DNA of 64,000 bases from Owenia fusiformis (GCA_903813345.2 CAIIXF020000001.1:7874001-7938000), one strand, 5' to 3'; numbered from the stretch's first letter, positions 10,801 to 47,925 are shown. The notes: a model not told the origin generated them from the sequence alone. Program-made: numbers and translations.

Positions 10801-13800
10801 AATGTAATGGTTAAATATGGAAAATTGAATTTTATCGCTTCACAAAAACCATTCTACAAACGCATGTTTTAATAATTCGATAAAAATATTTCAGGATGTA
10901 TAAATTCACCTCATTTTTAAAAGTATGCTAAAATTTCATGATGATCACTTCCAGAATAAAATAGTTGTGTCCTTCTAAAAAGCTCTCCTTATCGGGGGTT
11001 CTCCTTTGCCAAATTAAAGACAAATGCAGTAAAGTAAGACACAGGGTGAACAATATACAACGCTTATGGCTGGTCCCATGGGTGTTCGGATTAGACAGGT
11101 TTTACTGTAGTATTTAAATATCTAAAATGACCACCTTAAGATATGCCTTCCATGTCCAAAAACTAATCATATCTAGATTTTCATACTTAGAAACATTCCT
11201 GAATTTCAAATCAATTTTCCAGTGGTTTGTTTGAACAAGAAAAGTGAGACATCAACACCTGATGTCTTTTTAAAAAAGTCTTGATTCTGGGAAACAATCG
11301 TTATAAGCGCACATGGGCAAATAAAGCTGTGCTGTCTTAACTTGGGCGTTAGTGTTTCATACATGTCAGATATTTTGATGTGTCATTTCATTAATTTGAT
11401 GTGTCATCTTCAATGATTTATGTATAGTACAATGGAAGTTGAGGGTTCTTGTTGGGGGATGGCAAATTCCTCAACATTAAAATTTTTCAGTTGTTGACAC
11501 AGCTACTGGCATGATAATGATGATATATACATTTAATTATCAATTTTGAGAAAAGTAAAGAAAGAATATTAAAAGATGTTGTTTGGATATTAACCAAATT
11601 ACTGATCCTGATTAGATAATGAATAATCATACTTATATTATCTCAATATGAAACTGTCAATGTCATTCTTATTATTCATTGCACTTAGTTTGAGGTGCAA
11701 ATATCATAATATTTTTTGATAAAAGCAGACAATAGATTTTTTTCAAATTGAATCCACAGTGCATATTTCTGGTCAATATCTTAAAGGCAGAATCTGATCT
11801 ATAGGGGGTGACAAAATTACAAGCAACATGTATAATTGACCTGCCAATCTATTCTTTACAATATCAAATACAAGATCTCCCAAAAGATTCTTAATATGTT
11901 ATAAACTGGTGAAGTTATTAATGATTCAAAGTGCAAAATGAGTGAAAAATGTTTAAATTCTCCCAAATAATAAGAATGGTAACCATTCTTATAAAAAAAT
12001 AATACATTATTGTAAAAATCTTTAGTTTTCCTGGAATAAATTATGCACTTTTGTGATTTTTAGAAAATAGACATGACAAGGAATGACATGAGCCAAAAAT
12101 ATTCTAAAATTGAGACAATTTTTTGTTTAGCCTGCTCGCTATATCTGATTCTCTCTTTAAGTTTTTGATATACATTAGGTTTATATAGTGTTTGAAAGTT
12201 TCCTTCAATGCAACCCTATTCTTTACATGTTTCAATCCCAAACTTGTGCTTTCTCAACAAAGTATGACCATTGTGACAATTCATATTGTCATGTCAATTT
12301 GTAAATCAGTTATTTTTGACAATAGTCAGGAATGTCAAATACACTCATATCTTGAATGCCCTCTTGAAAGCTGGAAAACCGGGTTGTTGATGTTACACCA
12401 TATTCAGCAGTTGCTTCACTTATAGTTGTCACTGTTATAGGGATGCAATCATCAGGTGTTACTGTCATCTCAAAGGCAATATCGTATGCGTCACTCTGTA
12501 GCTTTGCACTCCATGTATTCACCTACAATAAAAGAAAAAACATTAACATTTACTGTAGCATACTTCTATATATATAGCAAACTGAGCTTGAAAGAGAAAG
12601 GCGCCTGTTCATTTAATATTTTTATTTTAACAAAGTGCAGTATTCATGTAATAACTGTTTCATGTTTTCTCTCTATCAGACAAGATTTTTGTAGCTTTTA
12701 AAAGTAAAATCTAACCTTGTATTCGCGAATGTAACTAACGCCTGTCAGCTACCGGATTAACCTACTGTTTTATGGCCAACTCATTTAAATATGAATGGAA
12801 TAGTGGCAGGTTCTATTCATATTTAAAATGAGTTACCCATAGAATAGTAGGTTAAATCCGGTAGACAACAGGCGTTAGTTGCATTCGAGAATACAAGCTA
12901 AGTTTAGTCCAGCAACAGTTAGAAATACCTCAGTCTTGTGGACAGAGTAGCATTTTAAGACACTGAAACTTTGATACATAGATTTGGTTTAAGTTTATAC
13001 GTTAATGCCTTATGGTTAAAGGTCATATAGGACCTCTCCTTGAGAAAGAATTCATTATCTTGTATCAAGTAGAATAATGGGTGCAGTTTTTGCTGAAAGG
13101 AGACAATACTACTGTACTACCGGCTGGTTATTTTTTCATGTAATTTTCAAAATTAGGAGTGAGTTGATGTTTTGTTCGGTGGGACTGCCACTCTGGGGAG
13201 TTGATCTTTTTCAAATTCTTACATTTGTATAGATTGAGGAGCCGCTTTAATGTAACTGCTATCACTGCTACAATACTAACCATGAAATCTTTCCCCAGAT
13301 TTTCTTGTCCCATAAAGCTTGCACTCTCTGGGATGCATCCATCAAAGTGAGGAAAGGCCTGATCGATTACATCACAGGTTCTGCCTGCTTTATTTATATT
13401 GTATTGCTTCTTTGCCACATTATCTTGTATGAACTTTATTTCTGACTTGTGTCCATTCATAGTGAAAATCCCTTCATATGCATTTGTTTTATTCCAACGA
13501 TCAAACCACCAATGGCCATCTAAAAAATTGGCCATACTTTGTCCACTGATAGTGAGGCCTTGAGTCATTCGAATATCCGCCTGCAGGATAAAAAGAAAGT
13601 ACAAAATTATAAATATATACAGGGTGGGCCAAAATTAATAGTCATGCTTAAAATGAAAATACCAGATTGTCAATCTTATATTTTTTGTCAGAGGAACACT
13701 TTTGAGTAGAATGTCCTCAAGCTATTTCCAACAAAAAATGTAATGTTAGCAGTTTCAGATGGGGGGAGGTACATTGGGTGCGTCCACAACCCCTCTGGCA

Positions 13801-35313: not shown

Positions 35314-38227
35314 TGATTGGCAGTTTTCTGAGACCGTGTGAGCCAAAATGAAGCAAAAGTGGGCATAGAAGGAATAGAGTCGTGATTTCAGAATTTTATT
35401 CCCAGTTTCATTTTTAACAATACCTCATATTTACATTTGATAAATATGTCATATTTTTTACTTCTCAATAGGTGGGCCCTTTCAGACCCCCCCCCCCCCC
35501 ACCTCTTAGTCAATTCACAGATCCATCATTAAACAATATGAACACAATTAATTAAATTAATGAATATGGAGACTTAAGTTATGATTGGTCCCTTATGTTT
35601 CTGCATATCATAATACAACAATGCCTCTAAACATACATATTGACAATAACAACATGATCCAAAGACCTTTTCACATATTTGCCCTGAGGTATATCATCAA
35701 TACTGAATATCAGGTATACAAGACATTTGTAATTACCGACAATTCCATACATAGTTGTCATAGATTATTAATTAGAGAGGATCTTTGTTTCCCTGCAGGA
35801 CCTTTTGTATATTTCTAACGCATTATATCTAATTGAAAGTGGTTCATGTGAAGCTGTACCACATGTTCCCTTACCAAACACTGATGAATCATGATATAAC
35901 AATTACAGAAGCTATAGACAGCAGATATTCTTAGCTTCCTTATGTCACCATATCACATGTTCACCAGACAGGATGAGCCTCCCATTTTAGTTTTAGGTCA
36001 CAGCTTTCAAACTGAGCCTTAAACAATAGCATTTTCTTCATACCATAAAACAATACATGGCTGAATTTCCATCAAAATCCCCATTGCCTGTTAACCTTTC
36101 TCATCCCAATTGATTGGCCTCTCTCTGTATATTGGGCCCATGTGGTCTAGGGAAAAAATGCTCATTTCCTGCGCGGTCATACCATGGTTTGACTCCCGTC
36201 TTATCCGAAATGATCTTTTATTTTTTGTTGTGCTTTTATTCTGCACTGGAAATACTGTTATTAACGATGTCATTTTAATATATAGGTATTCATAATCTTG
36301 TCAGTTGTTCAATTTATAAAAATAAAAATACATCCAAATATTGCGTTTTACATAAAGATCAGACTTTAAGAGAAAACAATGTTGAATTCGGTTCATCATT
36401 TGGTTACCAATCCTTTTGATCTTTCAAATATTGTCCTTAAATGTCATATTGAATGTGCCATTTAAATGGTTTAGCAAAAACGTTGCACCTAAAGTGACAT
36501 CATTGTGATGTCATTTAGGGTGCAAAATTGTTTTGAATAAAATGCAATTTTTTTTCTATGTCACACTTTCCTTTAAATGTTAATCTTTTTAAATAATCAA
36601 ATGTTGATTGTCTAACTAAGTTGAAAAGAAAAAAATATTTTGCTTTTAAAATTTTGAAATGCATTTCTCTGAACTACTTCCATGCATGGATGAGTTAATT
36701 TCTTGCTTATTTATCAACCAATTTTCTTAATTTTTTCGACAAAAGACACATGAGGATGAATATTATGCATTGTTCTGATTTACTGGTTAATTAAAGATAT
36801 GTCCTTTAAAAACTACTTTTTGAAATTTAAAAAAGATGTTTCACATATTACATTTTGATAACATTGGATACGACTTCAATATAAGCCAAAATGGTTTAAA
36901 CTTTATATAGGGCCTTTAAACATGAAAACATTAAAAATTGTAGCCAGAAGGGAAAATTGAGCCTTTAGTGCCACGTAATATACCAAACACTGCAAGATAA
37001 GGGAGTCAACCTGGTGTGAAATGCAATCTCAAATGGTTTTTGGTATAAATGTCCCATCAATAGGCAATGGTATGGGTTTAATGTATATAAATCATTAATG
37101 AAGTGGTACACCACTCTCAGACTACAAAGTTATTACATGAAAGCCCAATCCACTTTATTCTATAATGAATATTTCCATTTGTACATTCCTATTTAATGTA
37201 GCACAGAATTGCTGACTGATTCATTGCTATTTTATATTCTACAGCTCTCATTACACTTGACTGGTGGTGTAATTACTTTCTCTGCCAAGGTCATAGCTTC
37301 ATGTTTCAGGTTTGAACATTCTTTGATAACTTTGTAGATCAAAGATATTCATATTATCTTTTAAGTGTCCAGGGAGCCATGTGACGAGCAAGAATTAATA
37401 AGAGAAAGATTGTACTATGTCTACATAGGCACTCATTGCTACTTGACATGACAGCAATCTAATGAGCAAATTGTCATTTTGATTTGCTAACTGATATTAT
37501 GGGGACATGGAATAAAATGTTTGTAATAAAGTTTATACCCAAGCAAAACTTGATGTTAAAATAAGTCAATAAACACAGCCTGTCTAACAATCAAATTATT
37601 TTAAAACTGGCATTTTCAGTTGAAGAGGCAAGCCACAAGATTTCAAGGCATATAAAACTGATGCAGGTAGAAGTAAACATTACTTTAATCACTGCAATTA
37701 GTAACACAATAACCCAACTTTCATAAATAAATGTCATAAATTAATGTTTTTATCCCAATTTATTTAAACCTGCGCCTTTCTTTAAAACGCAATATTTGGA
37801 CATATATTATTTTTACATTTACATACAAGTGAAAAGATTATGAATACTTAAATATTAAGTCAATGTAGTAATAAATTGGTTTTCTGTGTTATATCAAAGC
37901 ACAATCATTGAGTTAAAAAAAGAACAAGCTGACGACAATATTGTAACTTTTTTTAGGTACAATAAAAACGTTTGGACTTATAGAACCTTTAGATCCCCCC
38001 GTAGTTTAAGATCATCTAGTTTCACCTATGGACTGATATTCAAACCACCAAAAGCCTCTAGACAATGCCATTAATACAGATTATGGATTTAAAATGGCCA
38101 TTTGACTCTGTGAGAAGAATTGAAATGCTTTTCATTTTGACATATATGAAGACAAACTGATGTCTGAAATCAATTAATTTATCAGTTGGTAGAGTCGCTA
38201 AAGTAAATGCTTACAGTTTAGCGCAAA

Positions 38228-38373
38228 GCTTTATACGAATGTGAAAGTATAAGTGAGATTATACTGCAAGTGAAACTAAGTTATTATACAATATATTTAT
38301 GAATTTGTTTTATACGAATGTGAAAATATAAGTGAGATTATACTGCAAGTGAAACTAAGTTATTATACAATAT
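38228..38373. repeat. 79-bp tandem repeat, left part (split by the LTR element)
   Basis: About 1.8 copies of TTATACGAATGTGAAAATATAAGTGAGATTATACTGCAAGTGAAACTAAGTTATTATACAATATATTTATGAATTTGTT. Confidence 0.9.
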
Positions 38374-39257
38374 TGTGGGAAATTTAGAAATTCCCCACTT
38401 ATTTTTTATTTTAATTAAAATGTAATAATCTTTGGTCAATTAAGAAGTTTGTTTTTATATGTCAGTAACACTTCATGTGCTAAGAGTAAACTAAGAGTAA
38501 GTGCAAATCTCAAAGAGTAACTTAGGAGTAACCATGAACTCAAGGAGTAAGCTGGGAGTAAGAGTAAGAGTAACCTTACTCTTTGCTTGTGCGGGAACCC
38601 TTGCCCTGGAATTGGTCAACCCATAGGAGAAATAGGCCACATGGTTATGAGTCATCAGCAATTAGAAGCTACTTGATTGACATTGCCATGGTGATTTCCC
38701 ACAATGCATCACCAAATGCAGTAAACACACCAGCTTAGTCCAGCTGTAGCCAATCAGATCGCTTCCTTATGCATCTCATTAGAGGGTTGAGACAGCACAT
38801 GATCTGATCACCTGATGTTAGTCTGGCTGGAGTAGTTGAAGTGTAAGGACCTGTAGTGTCATTTACAGAAGCTGGCTCAAGAAGTTGATGGAAGATTGTG
38901 ATTTTCCTGGTGGAATTGATGTCAATTCAAGGAGTGTTGAACTCTCAAAAGGAGGATAGAGTTTAACCAAGTGACGGACGGAGTTTATTGGATTATTTCA
39001 CACTGTTTGTGGCTGAAACAGACAGTGACACGTGGATATTTAGCCATTTGGCCAGAGATGTTATTGGCGTCCAGGGAGAGCTGCTAGGGAGATTGCAGTC
39101 TAGAGGCGCTTAGAGGACGTTTGTCAGAGTTTGTGAGTGTTAATCTAGTTTTATAATTCCTTTTTGTGATAGAATTGAAAGGTTTTAACTTGATTCTTTG
39201 TAATTCAGCGTTGATGTTGGCGGTTGCATCATACAGTTCCCACAATCCCTTGAAAGC

Positions 39258-39324
39258 CCGCCATCTTGGATGACTTCCGGTCCACGTGTAATTCCGCCAT
39301 CTTGTATGACTTCCGGTTCACGTG
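39258..39324. promoter_or_regulatory. Duplicated 36-bp module with YY1-like, ETS-like and E-box motifs inside the LTR (also 45444-45510)
   Basis: CCGCCATCTT-x-ATGACTTCCGGT-y-CACGTG occurs twice. Motif matches only; function untested. Confidence 0.45.
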
Positions 39325-39589
39325 TGGCTCAAGTCTAATCTCAGAATTTGATTGACATTCTTGAGTCTCACCAAGAGCAAGTCTATTTGTGGGGTAGCAG
39401 ATTTATTTCCATGTGACTGGTAATTTGGGTCTAATCTCATAATTTGATTGATATTCCCGAATTACTTGTCTGGAGGAGTGTTTTTGGAACAACAGGGATT
39501 CCAACTGAAGTGATCGTTTTATTTCCTTTGAGGGCAGATAGTTGGGTCTAATCTCAGAATTTGATCGATATTCCCAATCTATTCGCCAA

Positions 39590-40900
39590 GAGGAGTAAAG
39601 AGGAGTAATCCAGAGGAAAGAAGAGTAGCCTGGGCTGAAGAAGAGTAACCCTGAGTAGAGCAGACGAAGGAAGAGTAAATCGGAGTCCTCATCGCAGAGT
39701 AGAGGCGAGCGGAGTAAAGAAGAGTAACCCAGGCTGAAGAAGAGTAACCCTGAGTAGAGCAGACGAAGGAAGAGTAAATCAGAGTCCTCATCGCAGAGTA
39801 GAGGCGAGCGGAGTAAAGAAGAGTAACCCAGGCTGAAGAAGAGTAACCCTGAGTAGAGCAGACGAAGGAAGAGTAAATCAGAGTCCTCATCGCAGAGTAG
39901 AGGCGAGCGGAGTAAAGAAGAGTAATCCAGGCTGAAGAAGAGTAATCCTGAGTAGAGCAGAGCAGAGTAAAGAGTAAAGCAGAGTGGATAGCAGAGACGA
40001 GGGTAGAGCAAAGAGTAAGCAGAGCAGAGCAGATTAAAGAGTAACCAGGGCAGAACAGAGTAAACCAGAGCAGAGCGGAGTAAAGAGTAAGCAGAGCAGA
40101 ACCAAAAGGAGTAAAGAGTAACCAGAGCAGAATAGAGAGAAAGCAGAACAGAGCAGATAGGAGTAGAGAGTAACCAGAGCAGAGAAGATAGGAGTAAAGA
40201 GTAAGCAGAGCAGATAGGAGTAAAGAGTAACCAGAGAAGATAGGAGTAAAGAGTAAGCAGAGCAGATAGGAGTAAAGAGTAACCAGAGCAGAATCTGAGT
40301 AAGCAGAGCAGATAGGAGTAAAGAGTAAGCAGAGCAGAGCAGATAGGAGTAGAGAGTAATCAGAGCAGAATCCTGAGTAAGCAGAGCAGAGCAGATAGGA
40401 GTAAAGAGTAAGCAGAGTAGAATAAAGAGTAAGCAGAGCAGAACAGGGGAAAGAGTAAGCAGAGCAGTGCAGAGTAAAGAGTAAGCAGAACAGAATAAAG
40501 AGTAAGCAGAGCTGAACAGGGGAAAGAGTAAGCAGAGCAGAACAGAAAGGAGTAAAGAGTAACCTGAGCAGAACAGAGTAAATCAGAGCAGAGAGGAGTA
40601 AAGAGTAACCAGAACAGAATAGAGAGTAAGCAGAGCAGAGCGGAATAAAGAATAACCAGAGCAGACCAGAGTAAAGCAGAGCAGAGCGGAATAAAGAGTA
40701 ACCAGAGCAGAACAGAGTAAAGTAGAGCAGAGCGGAATAAAGAGTAACCAGAGCAGAATAAAGAGTAAGCAGAGCAGAACAGAGTGAAACTAAAGCAGAG
40801 TAAATGATGTCAGAGAACAGAAGAGTAAAGCAGAGTAACCCCTGAGCAGAGTGAAGAAGAGTAAAAGTAGAGCAGAGTGCAAACAAGAGAAGAGCAACAA
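39590..40900 (+). repeat. Purine-rich GAGTA/GAGCA low-complexity array inside the LTR, including three 99-bp units (also ~45776-47086)
   Basis: 99-bp units start at 39643, 39742 and 39841, followed by ~950 bp of AGAGC/GAGTAA permutations. Confidence 0.9.
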
Positions 40901-41148
40901 GACAACTCAGAGTTATTTATTACATGGACATTTGTGTTTTATTTGTTTTCAAAATTAAAGTGTTAATAAATTATAAAACCTGTATATTTGAATTTTGTAT
41001 ATAAATGTGTAACCACCTCCCCTTTCAGTGAAAGCAGTACCACCAAACCAGGTCTGCGCCCACATAAAACCAGTGAGAATCCCATATTAAATAAATTGTT
41101 CGTGACCCGACCACAACCACACTACCAGATTTTGGCCAGGTCCGACAT

Positions 41149-41167
41149 TGGTGGCAGCGGTGGGATT
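41149..41167 (+). other. Primer binding site complementary to the tRNA-Leu 3' end
   Basis: TGGTGGCAGCGGTGGGATT, 1 nt after the 5' LTR, is the reverse complement of AATCCCACCGCTGCCA-CCA, the 3' end of animal tRNA-Leu(AAG-type) as recalled. Confidence 0.85.
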
Positions 41168-41203
41168 ATTTGCTGACGGGGAACAAAGAGCCGAAAGAAG
41201 AAA

Positions 41204-44119
41204 ATGGCTTCTAAACAAGTAGAAGGCACTGATAATGTGGTCTCCAAGATGGAAGGAGGAAGACAGGAAGAGGAGTCTGGGTTCTTCAAGGGGGACTATA
41301 CCCAAGTGGACATGGAACTAGATGACACAGTGCCAGGGTTTTGTGGAGTAGAATCTACAAGACAAGACGAAGAAAATTCACTTGGTGCAAGGTTCAAGAC
41401 TGGATCTGCCAGACACGGAGTAGACAGTGGAGTGATGTCGTTGACATCCAGTGTGCTGGAGGGCAGGTCTCCAGGAGTAAAAGTACTAATGGAACAGGAG
41501 CTGCAGAGTCAGCAACTCCAGATGTCTGTGTTCAGCAGCCAGATGAAGGCACAAGCACTGCAGAACAGAACTATGTATGAAGACCTGAGAAGAGAAGTGT
41601 ACTCGGGGCAGGAAGACCTCCGAAGAGAAGTACATTTGAGTAAAGAGGAGATACAGAAACAGATAGAGAGGCTGAATACAATCCAACAAGAGGCGCATCA
41701 AGAATTCAAGAGCTTCCTGTCTGAAATAGTACAGCGCCTCCCTGCTGCTAAAGTTGACAGTCGCTTGACTCCTGAGAACTTGGAGAAGGAGCAAATGATG
41801 AGTAGCAGAAATACGGTGACTGCAAACTTGGAGCCAGAGCAAAAGAGTAGAGTAAGTTCACCGGCCCATGGAGAAGTGTGCTCTGGAATTTATATGAAGA
41901 AACCCTCACTACAGAGACAAGATGGATACAGTGGGAAAGAGTTGGCATCACATCTCGAAAGGGCATGGGTACCAGATGCTAAGATGGGGGGTCATAGAGG
42001 GTTGGTATCAGAGGAGCGCCGGACAGGTTCCCATGAGCCATTGAGAGAGCCGGGAAGGTCTACTCCATTACTCCCTGCAGAGAGACAGAAGAGTACAGAA
42101 CACATCTCTAGGGCGCAGATGTCCCAGGGAGGAGATGGGGAGTACTATGTTACTGGAGACGTTGACAAGGGTTGGCAAAGGAGTAGATGCCATCTGCAAC
42201 AGCAACCTGCAGAGTCATATCTTGGACAGCTGGATGAAAGAAAACGAGATGACCTCACAGATTATGTTCCTGGGCTAGATTTGGATGAAGATAATGGACT
42301 TAGGCATCAGTCCAGAGTACTATTAGATGAAATTGGTACAAGACAGCGTTCAATAATGCAGGAAGATTCCCAGCCAAGTGGAAAGGTAGAAGATGGGTCA
42401 AGTTCAATGCTCATGGCCAAGCTGGTGGACATGTGTTCGAAGTTGATAGAGTCTACCAAGAGTTCTAATACTCGAACAAGAATAAAGCCCACGCAGACCT
42501 TTGATGGCAGTGTGTCATGGGAAGATTACAGGGCCTACTTTGCAACCTGTGTGGAGAATAATGGTTGGACTGCACAAGAGAAGAGGCAATATCTGGCCAC
42601 AAACCTCAGAGGAGATGCACAACAGTTGGTCCTGGAGCTGGATGAAGGATACTTCTATGAAGATTTACTCCTGGCATTGGAAAAGAGGTTCGGCCCTGGT
42701 GGGAAGGCAGATGTTTATGAGGCTGAGCTATGCAGTCGCGTCAGGAAGCCAAAAGAATCTCTTCAGAGTCTGGGACAAAGCATTCGACGCTTGACTACAC
42801 TAGCCTACCCAGAGATGAGCAGGAAGGCCCAAGACCGTCTGGCCAGAAGAAGCTTCGAACAAGCCATACCAGATGATGATCTACGACAGGCCATCCACAG
42901 AAAGGATCCAGAAACCCTTGACAAAGCTATTGAAGTAGCTATAAAAGAAGAAAGCTACCAAGAGTCTGAGAGGATCCGAAGAAACCTCAGACAAAAGAGG
43001 GATCACAAAATCTTGCAGGTTGACGAGAAAGATGATGGTAGTACTACATTGGAGAAAATGCTGGAGCTAATGGAGCAGAAGCTTGAAAAGATGAGTAAAG
43101 AAATAGATGCCATCGCAAAAAGAGGATCTTCAAAACGTGTATTCACCTGTAGAAAATGTGGAGTGGAGGGACATATCGTTAGACGGTGTCCCATGATAAC
43201 ATGTTACAATTGTAACCAACCTGGACATTTGTCATATGACTGTCCATTACCAGAGAAACCAAGAAGAGAGAGGCATCCATCGGGCACAGACAACATAAAC
43301 TCTATGAGTTCCGTGAGGTTCTTGGCTGATTTCAAGACCCAAGAGGAGAAGAATACAACACCTGATGTAGAAGAAATTATGCTGTGCTCCTCCAGCCAAC
43401 CACAGAAGAAGAATTGCTCACTAAAGAGTAAGCATACTCAGAGCAGGGATTTGGAGCAGAGGAGGAAGGAGGTGTTGTCTACTCCAAGTAAACAGCTTCA
43501 AGAGAGTAATTTCCGAAGTTGTACTCTGGGGAAGCAACCTCAAGTGAGGAGAGTTACTCAGAGTAACAAGGAGAGAGGAGTGCCTACTCAGACTAAGATG
43601 TTGCAAGGGAGAAAGAGAAGACAACCTCCTAGAAGTTATAACATGCAGAGTGAAATGAAGAAGGTTACTCCAGCTCCTGAGTCAGCAAGGAGTGATTATG
43701 ATGATTCTACTCATAGAAGCCCCCAAAAGAGTAAAAATCAGAGATGGCTGTTCAACAGGAGTAGAGCAAATGGGTGGATGAATAGAGAAGATGACTTGGG
43801 GAAGAGTAAAGATTCTAAGAGTAAGAAGTTGCCACCCAATGGGGAAGAAGGGATATTTTCAGTCCATGGATCCCGGGTGAGTAATAGAAGAAAGTCTATT
43901 TTTCGGGGAGAGGTGCCGATGAGTAAAATGAAGATGCCAAGATTGAAACGTGAAGGGATTGGTCTTACTTTGAGGAATAAGGAAGGAAGAGCAAGAGACA
44001 ACAGAGATGGGAGAAACCTCCAGGGTCCATCAAAGGAGCTAGTGGTCACTACGAGTACACAGACCGGCCGAGGAACAAAAACTTCTGCACCAGCCCATTG
44101 TGTGTGCCATAGAAAGTGA
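41204..44119 (+). CDS. gag: Gag-like protein, 971 aa: N-terminal coiled coil, capsid-like core, two CCHC zinc knuckles, long basic C-terminal tail
   Basis: Uninterrupted ORF with good start context (AAAATGG). Gypsy-Gag-like core IKPTQTFDGSVSWEDYRAYF...NGWTAQEKRQYLATNLRGDA...LEKRFG...RKPKESLQSL. Knuckles CRKCGVEGHIVRRC (43148-43189) and CYNCNQPGHLSYDC (43202-43243). Confidence 0.9.
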   Translation: MASKQVEGTDNVVSKMEGGRQEEESGFFKGDYTQVDMELDDTVPGFCGVESTRQDEENSLGARFKTGSARHGVDSGVMSLTSSVLEGRSPGVKVLMEQELQSQQLQMSVFSSQMKAQALQNRTMYEDLRREVYSGQEDLRREVHLSKEEIQKQIERLNTIQQEAHQEFKSFLSEIVQRLPAAKVDSRLTPENLEKEQMMSSRNTVTANLEPEQKSRVSSPAHGEVCSGIYMKKPSLQRQDGYSGKELASHLERAWVPDAKMGGHRGLVSEERRTGSHEPLREPGRSTPLLPAERQKSTEHISRAQMSQGGDGEYYVTGDVDKGWQRSRCHLQQQPAESYLGQLDERKRDDLTDYVPGLDLDEDNGLRHQSRVLLDEIGTRQRSIMQEDSQPSGKVEDGSSSMLMAKLVDMCSKLIESTKSSNTRTRIKPTQTFDGSVSWEDYRAYFATCVENNGWTAQEKRQYLATNLRGDAQQLVLELDEGYFYEDLLLALEKRFGPGGKADVYEAELCSRVRKPKESLQSLGQSIRRLTTLAYPEMSRKAQDRLARRSFEQAIPDDDLRQAIHRKDPETLDKAIEVAIKEESYQESERIRRNLRQKRDHKILQVDEKDDGSTTLEKMLELMEQKLEKMSKEIDAIAKRGSSKRVFTCRKCGVEGHIVRRCPMITCYNCNQPGHLSYDCPLPEKPRRERHPSGTDNINSMSSVRFLADFKTQEEKNTTPDVEEIMLCSSSQPQKKNCSLKSKHTQSRDLEQRRKEVLSTPSKQLQESNFRSCTLGKQPQVRRVTQSNKERGVPTQTKMLQGRKRRQPPRSYNMQSEMKKVTPAPESARSDYDDSTHRSPQKSKNQRWLFNRSRANGWMNREDDLGKSKDSKSKKLPPNGEEGIFSVHGSRVSNRRKSIFRGEVPMSKMKMPRLKREGIGLTLRNKEGRARDNRDGRNLQGPSKELVVTTSTQTGRGTKTSAPAHCVCHRK

Positions 44120-44546
44120 TGAGTAATGAACTCTTAATTTAGTTGCACTGATAGATCGGTGTTTACAAATTGAGGAGTAAAAGTTAAAATGGGTATATTT
44201 AAGTGATGTAGTTGTATATTAACAGTGATAGACAGGAGTATAGGAGTGATTTTAAGATGTTTGCCTGTAAAACATGTGTTTTTGTATGAATATTAGTGGC
44301 AAAGGAGCAGTTTTATTTAGAAACCTGTAGTTTATTGTAATGGTATTTTAATATGTGATAATTTTATGAAGAGATATTTAAGCTTTTTGAGTTAATGTAA
44401 GGTGATGATGAGTAATTGTAACATCATACACTCTGAGATGTTAAATGTTCGAATATGTTGTTTTTGTAGTTCATGGAATTGTGGATTAAGAAAGTTGGTT
44501 ACTCATTAGTTGAATAAAGAGTAGCAATGCGAGGGCACATTGAGTT

Positions 44547-44559
44547 AAGATGGGGGGTG
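44547..44559 (+). other. Polypurine tract
   Basis: AAGATGGGGGGTG lies immediately before the 3' LTR start TGTGGG. Confidence 0.8.
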
Positions 44560-47333
44560 TGTGGGAAATTTAGAAATTCCCCACTTATTTTTTATTTTAA
44601 TTAAAATGTAATAATCTTTGGTCAATTAAGAAGTTTGTTTTTATATGTCAGTAACACTTCATGTGCTAAGAGTAAACTAAGAGTAAGTGCAAATCTCAAA
44701 GAGTAACTTAGGAGTAACCATGAACTCAAGGAGTAAGCTGGGAGTAAGAGTAAGAGTAACCTTACTCTTTGCTTGTGCGGGAACCCTTGCCCTGGAATTG
44801 GTCAACCCATAGGAGAAATAGGCCACATGGTTATGAGTCATCAGCAATTAGAAGCTACTTGATTGACATTGCCATGGTGATTTCCCACAATGCATCACCA
44901 AATGCAGTAAACACACCAGCTTAGTCCAGCTGTAGCCAATCAGATCGCTTCCTTATGCATCTCATTAGAGGGTTGAGACAGCACATGATCTGATCACCTG
45001 ATGTTAGTCTGGCTGGAGTAGTTGAAGTGTAAGGACCTGTAGTGTCATTTACAGAAGCTGGCTCAAGAAGTTGATGGAAGATTGTGATTTTCCTGGTGGA
45101 ATTGATGTCAATTCAAGGAGTGTTGAACTCTCAAAAGGAGGATAGAGTTTAACCAAGTGACGGACGGAGTTTATTGGATTATTTCACACTGTTTGTGGCT
45201 GAAACAGACAGTGACACGTGGATATTTAGCCATTTGGCCAGAGATGTTATTGGCGTCCAGGGAGAGCTGCTAGGGAGATTGCAGTCTAGAGGCGCTTAGA
45301 GGACGTTTGTCAGAGTTTGTGAGTGTTAATCTAGTTTTATAATTCCTTTTTGTGATAGAATTGAAAGGTTTTAACTTGATTCTTTGTAATTCAGCGTTGA
45401 TGTTGGCGGTTGCATCATACAGTTCCCACAATCCCTTGAAAGCCCGCCATCTTGGATGACTTCCGGTCCACGTGTAATTCCGCCATCTTGTATGACTTCC
45501 GGTTCACGTGTGGCTCAAGTCTAATCTCAGAATTTGATTGACATTCTTGAGTCTCACCAAGAGCAAGTCTATTTGTGGGGTAGCAGATTTATTTCCATGT
45601 GACTGGTAATTTGGGTCTAATCTCATAATTTGATTGATATTCCCGAATTACTTGTCTGGAGGAGTGTTTTTGGAACAACAGGGATTCCAACTGAAGTGAT
45701 CGTTTTATTTCCTTTGAGGGCAGATAGTTGGGTCTAATCTCAGAATTTGATCGATATTCCCAATCTATTCGCCAAGAGGAGTAAAGAGGAGTAATCCAGA
45801 GGAAAGAAGAGTAGCCTGGGCTGAAGAAGAGTAACCCTGAGTAGAGCAGACGAAGGAAGAGTAAATCGGAGTCCTCATCGCAGAGTAGAGGCGAGCGGAG
45901 TAAAGAAGAGTAACCCAGGCTGAAGAAGAGTAACCCTGAGTAGAGCAGACGAAGGAAGAGTAAATCAGAGTCCTCATCGCAGAGTAGAGGCGAGCGGAGT
46001 AAAGAAGAGTAACCCAGGCTGAAGAAGAGTAACCCTGAGTAGAGCAGACGAAGGAAGAGTAAATCAGAGTCCTCATCGCAGAGTAGAGGCGAGCGGAGTA
46101 AAGAAGAGTAACCCAGGCTGAAGAAGAGTAATCCTGAGTAGAGCAGAGCAGAGTAAAGAGTAAAGCAGAGTGGATAGCAGAGACGAGGGTAGAGCAAAGA
46201 GTAAGCAGAGCAGAGCAGATTAAAGAGTAACCAGGGCAGAACAGAGTAAACCAGAGCAGAGCGGAGTAAAGAGTAAGCAGAGCAGAACCAAAAGGAGTAA
46301 AGAGTAACCAGAGCAGAATAGAGAGAAAGCAGAACAGAGCAGATAGGAGTAGAGAGTAACCAGAGCAGAGAAGATAGGAGTAAAGAGTAAGCAGAGCAGA
46401 TAGGAGTAAAGAGTAACCAGAGAAGATAGGAGTAAAGAGTAAGCAGAGCAGATAGGAGTAAAGAGTAACCAGAGCAGAATCTGAGTAAGCAGAGCAGATA
46501 GGAGTAAAGAGTAAGCAGAGCAGAGCAGATAGGAGTAGAGAGTAATCAGAGCAGAATCCTGAGTAAGCAGAGCAGAGCAGATAGGAGTAAAGAGTAAGCA
46601 GAGTAGAATAAAGAGTAAGCAGAGCAGAACAGGGGAAAGAGTAAGCAGAGCAGTGCAGAGTAAAGAGTAAGCAGAACAGAATAAAGAGTAAGCAGAGCTG
46701 AACAGGGGAAAGAGTAAGCAGAGCAGAACAGAAAGGAGTAAAGAGTAACCTGAGCAGAACAGAGTAAATCAGAGCAGAGAGGAGTAAAGAGTAACCAGAA
46801 CAGAATAGAGAGTAAGCAGAGCAGAGCGGAATAAAGAATAACCAGAGCAGACCAGAGTAAAGCAGAGCAGAGCGGAATAAAGAGTAACCAGAGCAGAACA
46901 GAGTAAAGTAGAGCAGAGCGGAATAAAGAGTAACCAGAGCAGAATAAAGAGTAAGCAGAGCAGAACAGAGTGAAACTAAAGCAGAGTAAATGATGTCAGA
47001 GAACAGAAGAGTAAAGCAGAGTAACCCCTGAGCAGAGTGAAGAAGAGTAAAAGTAGAGCAGAGTGCAAACAAGAGAAGAGCAACAAGACAACTCAGAGTT
47101 ATTTATTACATGGACATTTGTGTTTTATTTGTTTTCAAAATTAAAGTGTTAATAAATTATAAAACCTGTATATTTGAATTTTGTATATAAATGTGTAACC
47201 ACCTCCCCTTTCAGTGAAAGCAGTACCACCAAACCAGGTCTGCGCCCACATAAAACCAGTGAGAATCCCATATTAAATAAATTGTTCGTGACCCGACCAC
47301 AACCACACTACCAGATTTTGGCCAGGTCCGACA
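44560..47333 (+). repeat. 3' LTR (2774 bp)
   Basis: Near-identical copy of 38374-41147. Candidate polyA signal AATAAA at 47151-47156. Confidence 0.95.
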
Positions 47334-47925
47334 ATATATTTATGAATTTGTTTTATACAAATGTGAAAATATAAGTGAGATTATACTGCAAGTGAAACTA
47401 ATTTATTATACAATATATTTATGAATTTGTTTTATACGAATGTGAAGATATAAGTGAGATTATACTGCAAGTGAAACTAAGTTATTATACAATATATTTA
47501 TGAATTTGCTTTATACAAATGTGAAAATATAAGTGAGATTATACTGCTAGTGAAACTAAGTTATTATACAATATATTTATGAATTTGCTTTTATGAATGT
47601 GAAAATATAAGTGAGATTATACTGCATGTGAAACTAAGTTATTATACAATATATTTATGAATTTGTTTTATACGAATGTGAAAATATAAGTGAGATTATA
47701 CTGCAAGTGAAACAAAGTTATTATACAATATATTTATGAATTTGCTTTATACAAATGTGAAAATATAAGTGAGGTTATACTGCAAGTGAAACTAAGTTAT
47801 TATACAATATATTTATGAATTTGCTTTATATGAATGTGAAAATATAAGTGAGATTATACTACAAGTCTCTTGAAAGCCCATGGTGAAACTAAGTTATCAT
47901 ACAATATATTTATGAATTTGTTTTG
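47334..47925. repeat. 79-bp tandem repeat, right part (~7.5 copies)
   Basis: Same unit as 38228-38373, period 79 (47393, 47472, 47551). It resumes in register after the TSD. Confidence 0.95.

Follow-up and report, generated by a model that had tools for sequence, protein, structure and literature searches.

Several animal retroelements, such as mouse ETn/MusD, deleted IAP elements, and Drosophila HeT-A, lack some or all of their enzymes and are mobilized by relatives. Of these, ETn has no coding capacity, parts of pol persist in the deleted IAPs, and HeT-A, a gag-only non-LTR element, is without long terminal repeats (LTRs). Non-autonomous LTR elements that keep gag and lack pol have been documented as a class mainly in plants, as the TR-GAG elements (Chaparro et al. 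2015, PMC4350172). That source describes TR-GAG elements as short (<4 kb) and as coming from plants and a brown alga, reports that the authors' model predicted none in Drosophila, and states that a full-length autonomous partner of TR-GAG1 was not found (PMC4350172). A described animal gag-only LTR family was not found in the literature that we searched, which is not proof of absence; a pol-less way of life is known for such elements, and it is rarely described in animals. Here, we analyze an 8960-bp LTR element at positions 38374 to 47333 of a 64,000-nucleotide stretch of the Owenia fusiformis genome (GCA_903813345.2, CAIIXF020000001.1:7874001-7938000; hereafter the window, the whole stretch in whose coordinates all positions are given). 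The element is a genuine, very recently inserted LTR retrotransposon with an intact capsid gene and no pol found in its interior. On balance, we lean toward the view that it is a gag-only element propagated as a lineage and mobilized by Pol in trans.

A recent insertion with giant LTRs

The 5' LTR (38374 to 41147, plus strand) and the 3' LTR (44560 to 47333, plus strand) were delimited by a direct-repeat search and an ungapped comparison at an offset of 6186. Each is 2774 bp long, starts with TGTGGG, and ends with TCCGACA, and the pair is identical at 2773 of 2774 bp and makes up 61.9% of the element. The sole mismatch (T at 39926 versus C at 46112) lies within a 99-nt tandem repeat, and C is the consensus letter there. 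This single difference corresponds to a K of 3.6e-4; if the substitution rate is assumed to be 1e-9 to 1e-8 per site per year, it would date the insertion to roughly 18,000 to 180,000 years ago. No pieces of the element were found elsewhere in the 64-kb window, as 0 of 63 BLASTN rows fell outside it.

Flank comparison identified the target-site duplication (TSD) ATAT on both sides of the element, at 38370 to 38373 and 47334 to 47337. The insertion target is a 79-bp tandem array, of which TRF recognized 1.9 units on the left (38230 to 38373) and 6.8 units on the right (47334 to 47866). When the empty site was rebuilt from the flanks minus one ATAT, its 34-nt core was found verbatim in an intact neighboring 79-bp unit at 47635. 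Thus, both ends of the insertion are exactly placed, as is the 4-bp TSD, and a chance match is excluded.

These junctions bear on the possibility of an assembly artifact, in which reads from different family members were collapsed or wrongly joined and so gave rise to the interior without pol or to the near-identical LTRs. In favor of this, the family has multiple copies, and tandem repeats abound in the LTRs. However, both array junctions restore an intact unit exactly, with the 4-bp TSD, the open reading frame (ORF) is unbroken across the would-be join, and contigs of an independent run lie over every interior bin. We therefore regard an artifact as very improbable. As for the array itself, it is AT-rich, with at least 8.7 units showing 93 to 94% matches, and a contig joint that "goes back 79" at 38326/38248 in the deep DNA run X1 (described below) points to copy-number variation of the array.

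The signals used in reverse transcription are in place at both ends of the interior. A 19-nt primer-binding site (PBS; 41149 to 41167, plus strand) follows the 5' LTR after a 1-nt spacer and is the complement of the 3'-terminal stretch of tRNA-Leu(AAG), CCA included. Nucleotides 1 to 18 of the PBS are the exact reverse complement of tRF-Leu-AAG as listed in Table 1 of PMC9161985, a human tRNA fragment and not one of the host, and base 19 also pairs according to the 22-nt fragment in Appendix A of PMC12025293. At the other end, the polypurine tract (PPT) AAGATGGGGGGTG (44547 to 44559, plus strand) abuts the 3' LTR. Metagenome contigs were scanned for exact patterns, once with the U5 end joined to the PBS and once with the PPT joined to the LTR start, and 0 matches were obtained. 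Within the 64-kb window, a tRNA scan found 0 tRNA genes, and an Rfam scan of the whole window gave 0 matches.

The motifs TATATAA at 40998 and AATAAA at 41090 delimit a putative promoter-to-polyadenylation segment (40998 to 41095, plus strand). On this basis, the LTR would be composed of a giant U3 of ~2.65 kb, an R of ~80 nt, and a U5 of ~40 nt. Seven RNA molecules in the RNA run X13 start at 38879, ~505 nt into the LTR, and do not fit the layout given by TATATAA and AATAAA. We considered 38879 as a transcription start and set it aside, and the motif pair near the 3' end of the LTR was preferred as the presumptive layout.

The length of the LTRs is in part taken up by tandem repeats. TRF located a 99-nt repeat in 3.7 copies (39613 to 39985, plus strand, in the 5' LTR; 45799 to 46171 in the 3' LTR) and a degenerate purine-rich array with a 26-nt base unit in ~32 copies (40005 to 40800, plus strand; 46191 to 46986 in the 3' LTR). 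Antisense stop-free frames of up to 445 aa from stop to stop, at 39403 to 40916 and 45589 to 47102 on the minus strand, were rejected as genes and are read as by-products of the purine-rich tandem repeats. Further upstream in U3, at 39220 to 39580 and in the 3' LTR counterpart, there are two copies of a ~45-nt unit containing GCCATCTTG, CTTCCGG, and CACGTG, and three copies of GGGTCTAATCTCAnAATTTGAT. We take these short repeats to resemble YY1, ETS, and E-box sites.

An intact ORF with a Gag core and no pol

A single ORF of 971 aa plus a stop codon (41204 to 44119, plus strand) was found by ORF search in the interior, and within it, only residues ~415 to 685 are recognizable as Gag by comparison with known sequences. 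A phmmer search against 1.84 billion representatives returned 6889 matches at E<=1e-3 and 112 at E<=1e-30; in the 150 matches listed, the best stretch always fell within residues 360 to 741, and identity reached at most 48%. In a Pfam scan of the ORF, zf-CCHC alone scored above its cut-off, and Ty3_capsid was a sub-threshold match (E=0.046). The capsid (CA) region (42446 to 43147, plus strand) was predicted by AlphaFold and Foldseek to form a two-lobed, all-helical fold plus a long helix, and it is followed by two CCHC zinc knuckles of the nucleocapsid (NC) type (Pfam; residues 649 to 662 and 667 to 680; 43148 to 43243, plus strand). The model of the core, built from 61 aligned sequences, reached a predicted local distance difference test (pLDDT) score of 85.6 and replaced an earlier single-sequence AlphaFold model of poor quality (pLDDT 47). 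The best solved structures in Foldseek were capsids, namely PNMA2 (E=6e-5), MLV CA, Arc, dArc1, Copia, and Ty3. A word-indexed protein search at near lengths gave no match to the core region, and a single-protein query against viral contigs found no relative. The retroviral-type two-lobed capsid and the CCHC nucleocapsid expected of a Ty3/gypsy (Metaviridae) Gag are both present, and judging from the homology and the modeled fold, the core of the ORF is a genuine CA-NC Gag.

A long and intact ORF with a capsid fold, whose closest solved structure is the domesticated PNMA2, might also be expected of a host gene, that is, a domesticated gag like those of the Arc, PNMA, and RTL genes. Domesticated gag genes are not known to have LTRs, and the ORF described here lies between two almost identical LTRs and is accompanied by a PBS, a PPT, and a TSD, indicating recent retrotransposition. 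The family is, besides, multi-copy and not a fixed single-copy locus, and we give the host-gene explanation next to no credence.

Two orphan regions flank the core. The N-terminal region (residues 1 to 414; 41204 to 42445, plus strand) is acidic, with an isoelectric point (pI) of 5.3, and contained no phmmer best stretch among the 150 matches listed. Several relatives have long N-terminal extensions too, dissimilar in sequence. The C-terminal tail (residues 686 to 971; 43259 to 44116, plus strand) is basic, with a pI of 10.7 and a net charge of +33. A word-indexed protein search at shorter lengths found no homologue of the tail, fused forms of >1700 aa being outside that search; ESM Atlas gave no usable match with the tail, and Pfam assigned no family to the tail alone (271 aa).

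The tail is nevertheless open to a degree that composition does not explain. Its 286 codons contain no in-frame stop, the other two frames having 14 and 28, and the frame was open in 0 of 20000 composition-preserving shuffles. Thus, the tail is coding, or was until very recently, and a deletion with random junctions would rarely give such an open tail. After the stop codon, 440 bp of non-coding sequence remain, comprising an AT-rich, C-poor 3' region (44120 to 44546, plus strand) and the PPT. The whole of 44120 to 44559 is strikingly poor in C (6.6% versus 18% in the ORF).

We found no trace of pol in the interior. Families for protease (PR), reverse transcriptase (RT), RNase H (RH), and integrase (IN) were not detected by Pfam at E<=1 in the ORF or in the tail alone. 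The pol families were also absent from 19 other-frame ORFs of at least 40 aa across the interior, where one sub-threshold match to DUF237 (E=0.0025) was obtained. When 24 homologues of at least 600 aa, 6 of which carry PR, RT, RH, or IN parts, were compared with the whole window by tblastn, matches were confined to 42437 to 43441, apart from four at chance level (E 0.5 to 0.9).

The relatives show what might have been expected downstream of the knuckles. An aspartyl protease lies 45 to 95 aa after the knuckles in 6 of the 10 long homologues scanned; Pecten maximus XP_033761565 has PR and then RVT_1 and RT_RNaseH_2 after Gag, and Mytilus edulis CAG2245062 has PR and integrase C-terminal domains. 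This arrangement of domains is that of Ty3/gypsy elements. In the Owenia element, recognizable similarity to these relatives stops at the knuckles, and the orphan tail fills the position at which the protease would start, so that its 286 aa sit where relatives have PR-RT-RH-IN. BLASTP extensions past the knuckles to residues 743 to 746 were of low similarity and were not used to place the breakpoint. The Pol of Ty3/gypsy (Metaviridae) elements, in PR-RT-RH-IN order, was not found in the interior, and the element is probably Ty3/gypsy-derived as judged solely from its Gag homologues, which carry PR, RT, RNase H, and the integrase C-terminus.

The element has no PR, RT, RNase H, or IN, yet it was inserted recently; therefore, the enzymes for its reverse transcription and integration came from elsewhere. 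From its anatomy, it would be a non-autonomous element helped in trans. The preliminary description of this locus, produced by a model from the sequence alone, had proposed giant 2774-bp LTRs with one difference that account for 62% of the element, TG..CA ends with a 4-bp TSD, a 19-nt tRNA-Leu PBS, a PPT, and ~440 bp of AT-rich non-coding sequence before it, all of which were borne out by the measurements above. It had also called the ORF a 971-aa Gag; the intact ORF stands, whereas Gag identity does not extend beyond residues ~415 to 685. Its statement that pol is missing agrees with the profile search of interior ORFs in other frames and with tblastn using pol-bearing homologues, and its proposal that a helper supplies Pol is supported by an intact capsid gene and cis signals without PR, RT, RNase H, and IN.

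Family copies in public sequencing runs and the origin of the gag-only form

Positions 36500 to 44620, which take in the left flank, 5' LTR, and interior, were compared with public sequencing data, in which X1 denotes the contigs of a deep DNA run, X16 and X17 denote raw DNA reads of one other sample, and X13 denotes RNA. In no run did the share of the interior's words reach one half, the best being 0.40 among 12 runs in 4 studies, and that word search listed no RNA run. In X1, a flank contig (36977 to 37725; depth 66.4) differs from the window by 2 other letters and 3 gaps, which indicates that X1 is from the same species. Contigs of X1 cover all 12 interior bins, with a summed depth of 225 to 584 up to 44358, and the LTR bins have summed depths of ~1300 to 27000. 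The bins over the tail and the 3' untranslated region (UTR) have summed depths of 225 to 308, with one contig of depth 164 at 44339; this is roughly 2.5 to 4.7 times the flank depth, keeping in mind that summed contig depth is not equal to copy number. Over gag, the listed X1 contigs differ from the window copy by 13 to 36 letters in 220 to 564 nt (5 to 8%). Taken together, these X1 data suggest that a diverged subfamily exists in a few copies, with the tail included.

The inserts of X16 and X17 are short; partly aligned reads dominate (4714 of 4784 in X16 and 4470 of 4550 in X17), with adapter in the loose ends; 3702 reads in X16 and 3455 in X17 are 90 to 95% alike. Depth is ~1 to 4 in the flank bins at 37042 to 37583, ~50 to 75 in the LTR bins, ~2 to 30 in the gag bins (10 to 30 in the core), and 8 to 15 in the last bin (44359 to 44620). 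The RNA run X13 has a depth of 0.2 to 6.8 over the LTR and gag up to 43545, with the first mate mostly on the minus strand, which would mean sense transcription in a stranded library of the usual kind. As a whole, the family sharing the LTR and gag is multi-copy, diverse, and transcribed. Of 661 variant rows, 40 were listed, and 26 of these 40 fall in gag; 13 of the 26 are synonymous (N-terminal region, 4 of 12; core, 9 of 14), against 21% expected if single-base changes were random. This excess is a hint of selection on Gag among family members.

The runs bear directly on the question of whether the gag-only form has been propagated or arose once, in this copy. In the latter case, a full-length Gag-Pol element would have lost PR-RT-RH-IN, whether through template switching as this copy was reverse-transcribed or through an internal deletion shortly after it had inserted. 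The tail would then derive from the 3' coding end of the parent, poorly conserved and retained in frame, or from a fused fragment, and the copy would never have been propagated in this form. Deletion variants are common in LTR families (PMC3286476). Besides, the relatives are single-ORF Gag-Pol elements in which recognizable similarity to our ORF ends just before their protease, and an in-frame fusion, with a prior of ~1 in 3, would explain the open tail without selection. Such a one-off deletion derivative is hard to reconcile with X1, in which contigs at least 90% alike lie over the whole tail and the 3' UTR at gag-like depths several times that of the flank. The 5 to 8% divergence of the X1 gag contigs is likewise hard to square with a deletion unique to a young copy, unless the parent has the same tail, and in none of its frames does the tail show likeness to a pol domain.

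Several observations count against a propagated gag-only lineage, and some of them speak for a single deletion at the same time. X16, X17, and X13 contain many LTR and gag copies and none of 43546 to 44358: depth there is 0 in X16 and X17, save for 0.24 in one bin, and RNA depth in X13 is 0 beyond 43545. The tail is thus not common to all family members at a likeness of at least 90%; the members without it may be a pol-bearing partner, or their tail may merely be >10% diverged. A near-identical sibling copy was not seen in any of the 12 runs, and current activity rests on one insertion. The gag-to-tail junction is not bridged, as the listed X1 pieces end at 43242 and 43463 and none spans 43242 to 43600, and the X1 coverage of the tail could come from another element carrying the tail sequence. 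No autonomous partner was identified in the run data, no whole-genome search having been made. Finally, the synonymous excess is drawn from a selected subset, 40 of the 661 variant rows. Because of the tail-less relatives in X16, X17, and X13 and the lack of near-identical siblings, a one-off deletion keeps an appreciable share of our belief, about a third.

A propagated gag-only lineage is favored because the tail is non-randomly open and because X1 covers it. The preliminary description had likewise suggested an actively mobilized gag-only lineage as opposed to a unique deletion; this suggestion is supported in part, as coverage of the whole interior in X1 fits it and a tail depth of ~0 in X16, X17, and X13 weighs against it. 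According to the lineage model, RNA would be transcribed from a promoter that is probably located near the 3' end of the giant U3. This RNA would encode a capsid-nucleocapsid protein extended at both termini by lineage-specific sequence, and no protease, reverse transcriptase, RNase H, or integrase; the element keeps all the cis signals that helper enzymes need, namely the LTR ends, the tRNA-Leu PBS, and the PPT. The Pol of a related autonomous element would then act in trans: the RNA would be packaged, reverse-transcribed with tRNA-Leu as the primer, and inserted so that 4 bp of the target were duplicated. In this model, the gag-only form itself appears to have been propagated as a small subfamily, and the element's own Gag would be used in its mobilization. 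We can also conceive of a bolder version, which we put forward tentatively and rate somewhat below an even chance: a self-sustaining animal gag-only Ty3/gypsy lineage with subfamilies ~6% apart, in which the capsid gene and a new, basic, disordered 286-aa tail are under selection, and which parasitizes only the Pol of a partner sharing its LTR ends, tRNA-Leu PBS, and PPT.

The surroundings of the element contain further repeats. A very high-copy short repeat at 36500 to 37041 has a core of ~42 nt at ~36878 to 36919, with loose ends to the left and right of the core, and occurs in RNA as well; its depth is ~160 to 170 per orientation in X16 and X17 and ~141,000 summed in X1, and it is probably a dispersed fragment resembling a short interspersed element or a miniature inverted-repeat transposable element. 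Another repeated fragment lies left of the 79-bp array (37584 to 38125; DNA depth ~15 to 35), with the RNA first mate mostly on the plus strand, and three runs have loose ends at 37784 and 37820. Farther away, a 168-aa stop-to-stop ORF at 13131 to 13634 on the minus strand has a sub-threshold Ependymin match (E=7.8e-5; 23.3 bits versus a cut-off of 32.3) and may be an exon of a host gene. This weak match and the GC content, ~33%, are in keeping with an invertebrate animal.

Significance and comparison with known systems

For a specialist, the element holds little surprise because deletion derivatives mobilized in trans are commonplace, and as it stands, it leaves the knowledge of retrotransposition itself unchanged. 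As a clean, very young insertion with exact boundaries, it can serve as a marker of polymorphism and as a starting point for annotation of the family. If the gag-only form has indeed been propagated, the element would provide an animal system for asking why a parasite of a parasite keeps its capsid, whether to have its own RNA packaged preferentially or to interfere with the helper. A private Gag could allow competition with the helper for packaging, and the tail would offer a chance to study the addition of a new disordered region to Gag. The element would then be an animal counterpart of the plant TR-GAGs with giant, repeat-filled LTRs.

The Owenia element was compared with ETn/MusD, deleted IAPs, and HeT-A at the level of description. 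It shares with the LARD and TRIM elements, as described in PMC4350172, a non-autonomous, partner-reliant way of life, and with LARDs, which are large, it has giant LTRs in common. Unlike LARDs and TRIMs, it keeps an intact gag ORF; a LARD interior is without coding capacity, and the interior described here contains an intact ORF of 971 aa. Barley BARE-2, in the account given in PMC4350172, also belongs to a two-component system with an autonomous partner, although its defect is the opposite: BARE-2 has no functional Gag and borrows it, whereas the Owenia element keeps Gag and is without Pol.

The bivalve single-ORF Gag-Pol elements of the Ty3/gypsy group (XP_033761565 and CAG2245062) have homologous CA and CCHC regions, with 30 to 37% identity in tblastn, and the same general LTR retrotransposon plan. 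They run on into aspartyl protease, RT, RNase H, and integrase, and the Owenia element is without these. The TR-GAG elements resemble it in organization: according to PMC4350172, they have LTRs with a PBS and a PPT, a single Gag ORF, no pol, and presumed mobilization in trans, and a single gag-only ORF between LTRs with a PBS and a PPT is exactly what we found at this locus. The Owenia element exceeds the TR-GAG size given there (<4 kb; PMC4350172), being 8960 bp long, and it further differs from TR-GAGs, as they are described there, in its 2.8-kb LTRs, its location in an animal genome, the Ty3/gypsy affinity of its Gag, and its 286-aa orphan tail.

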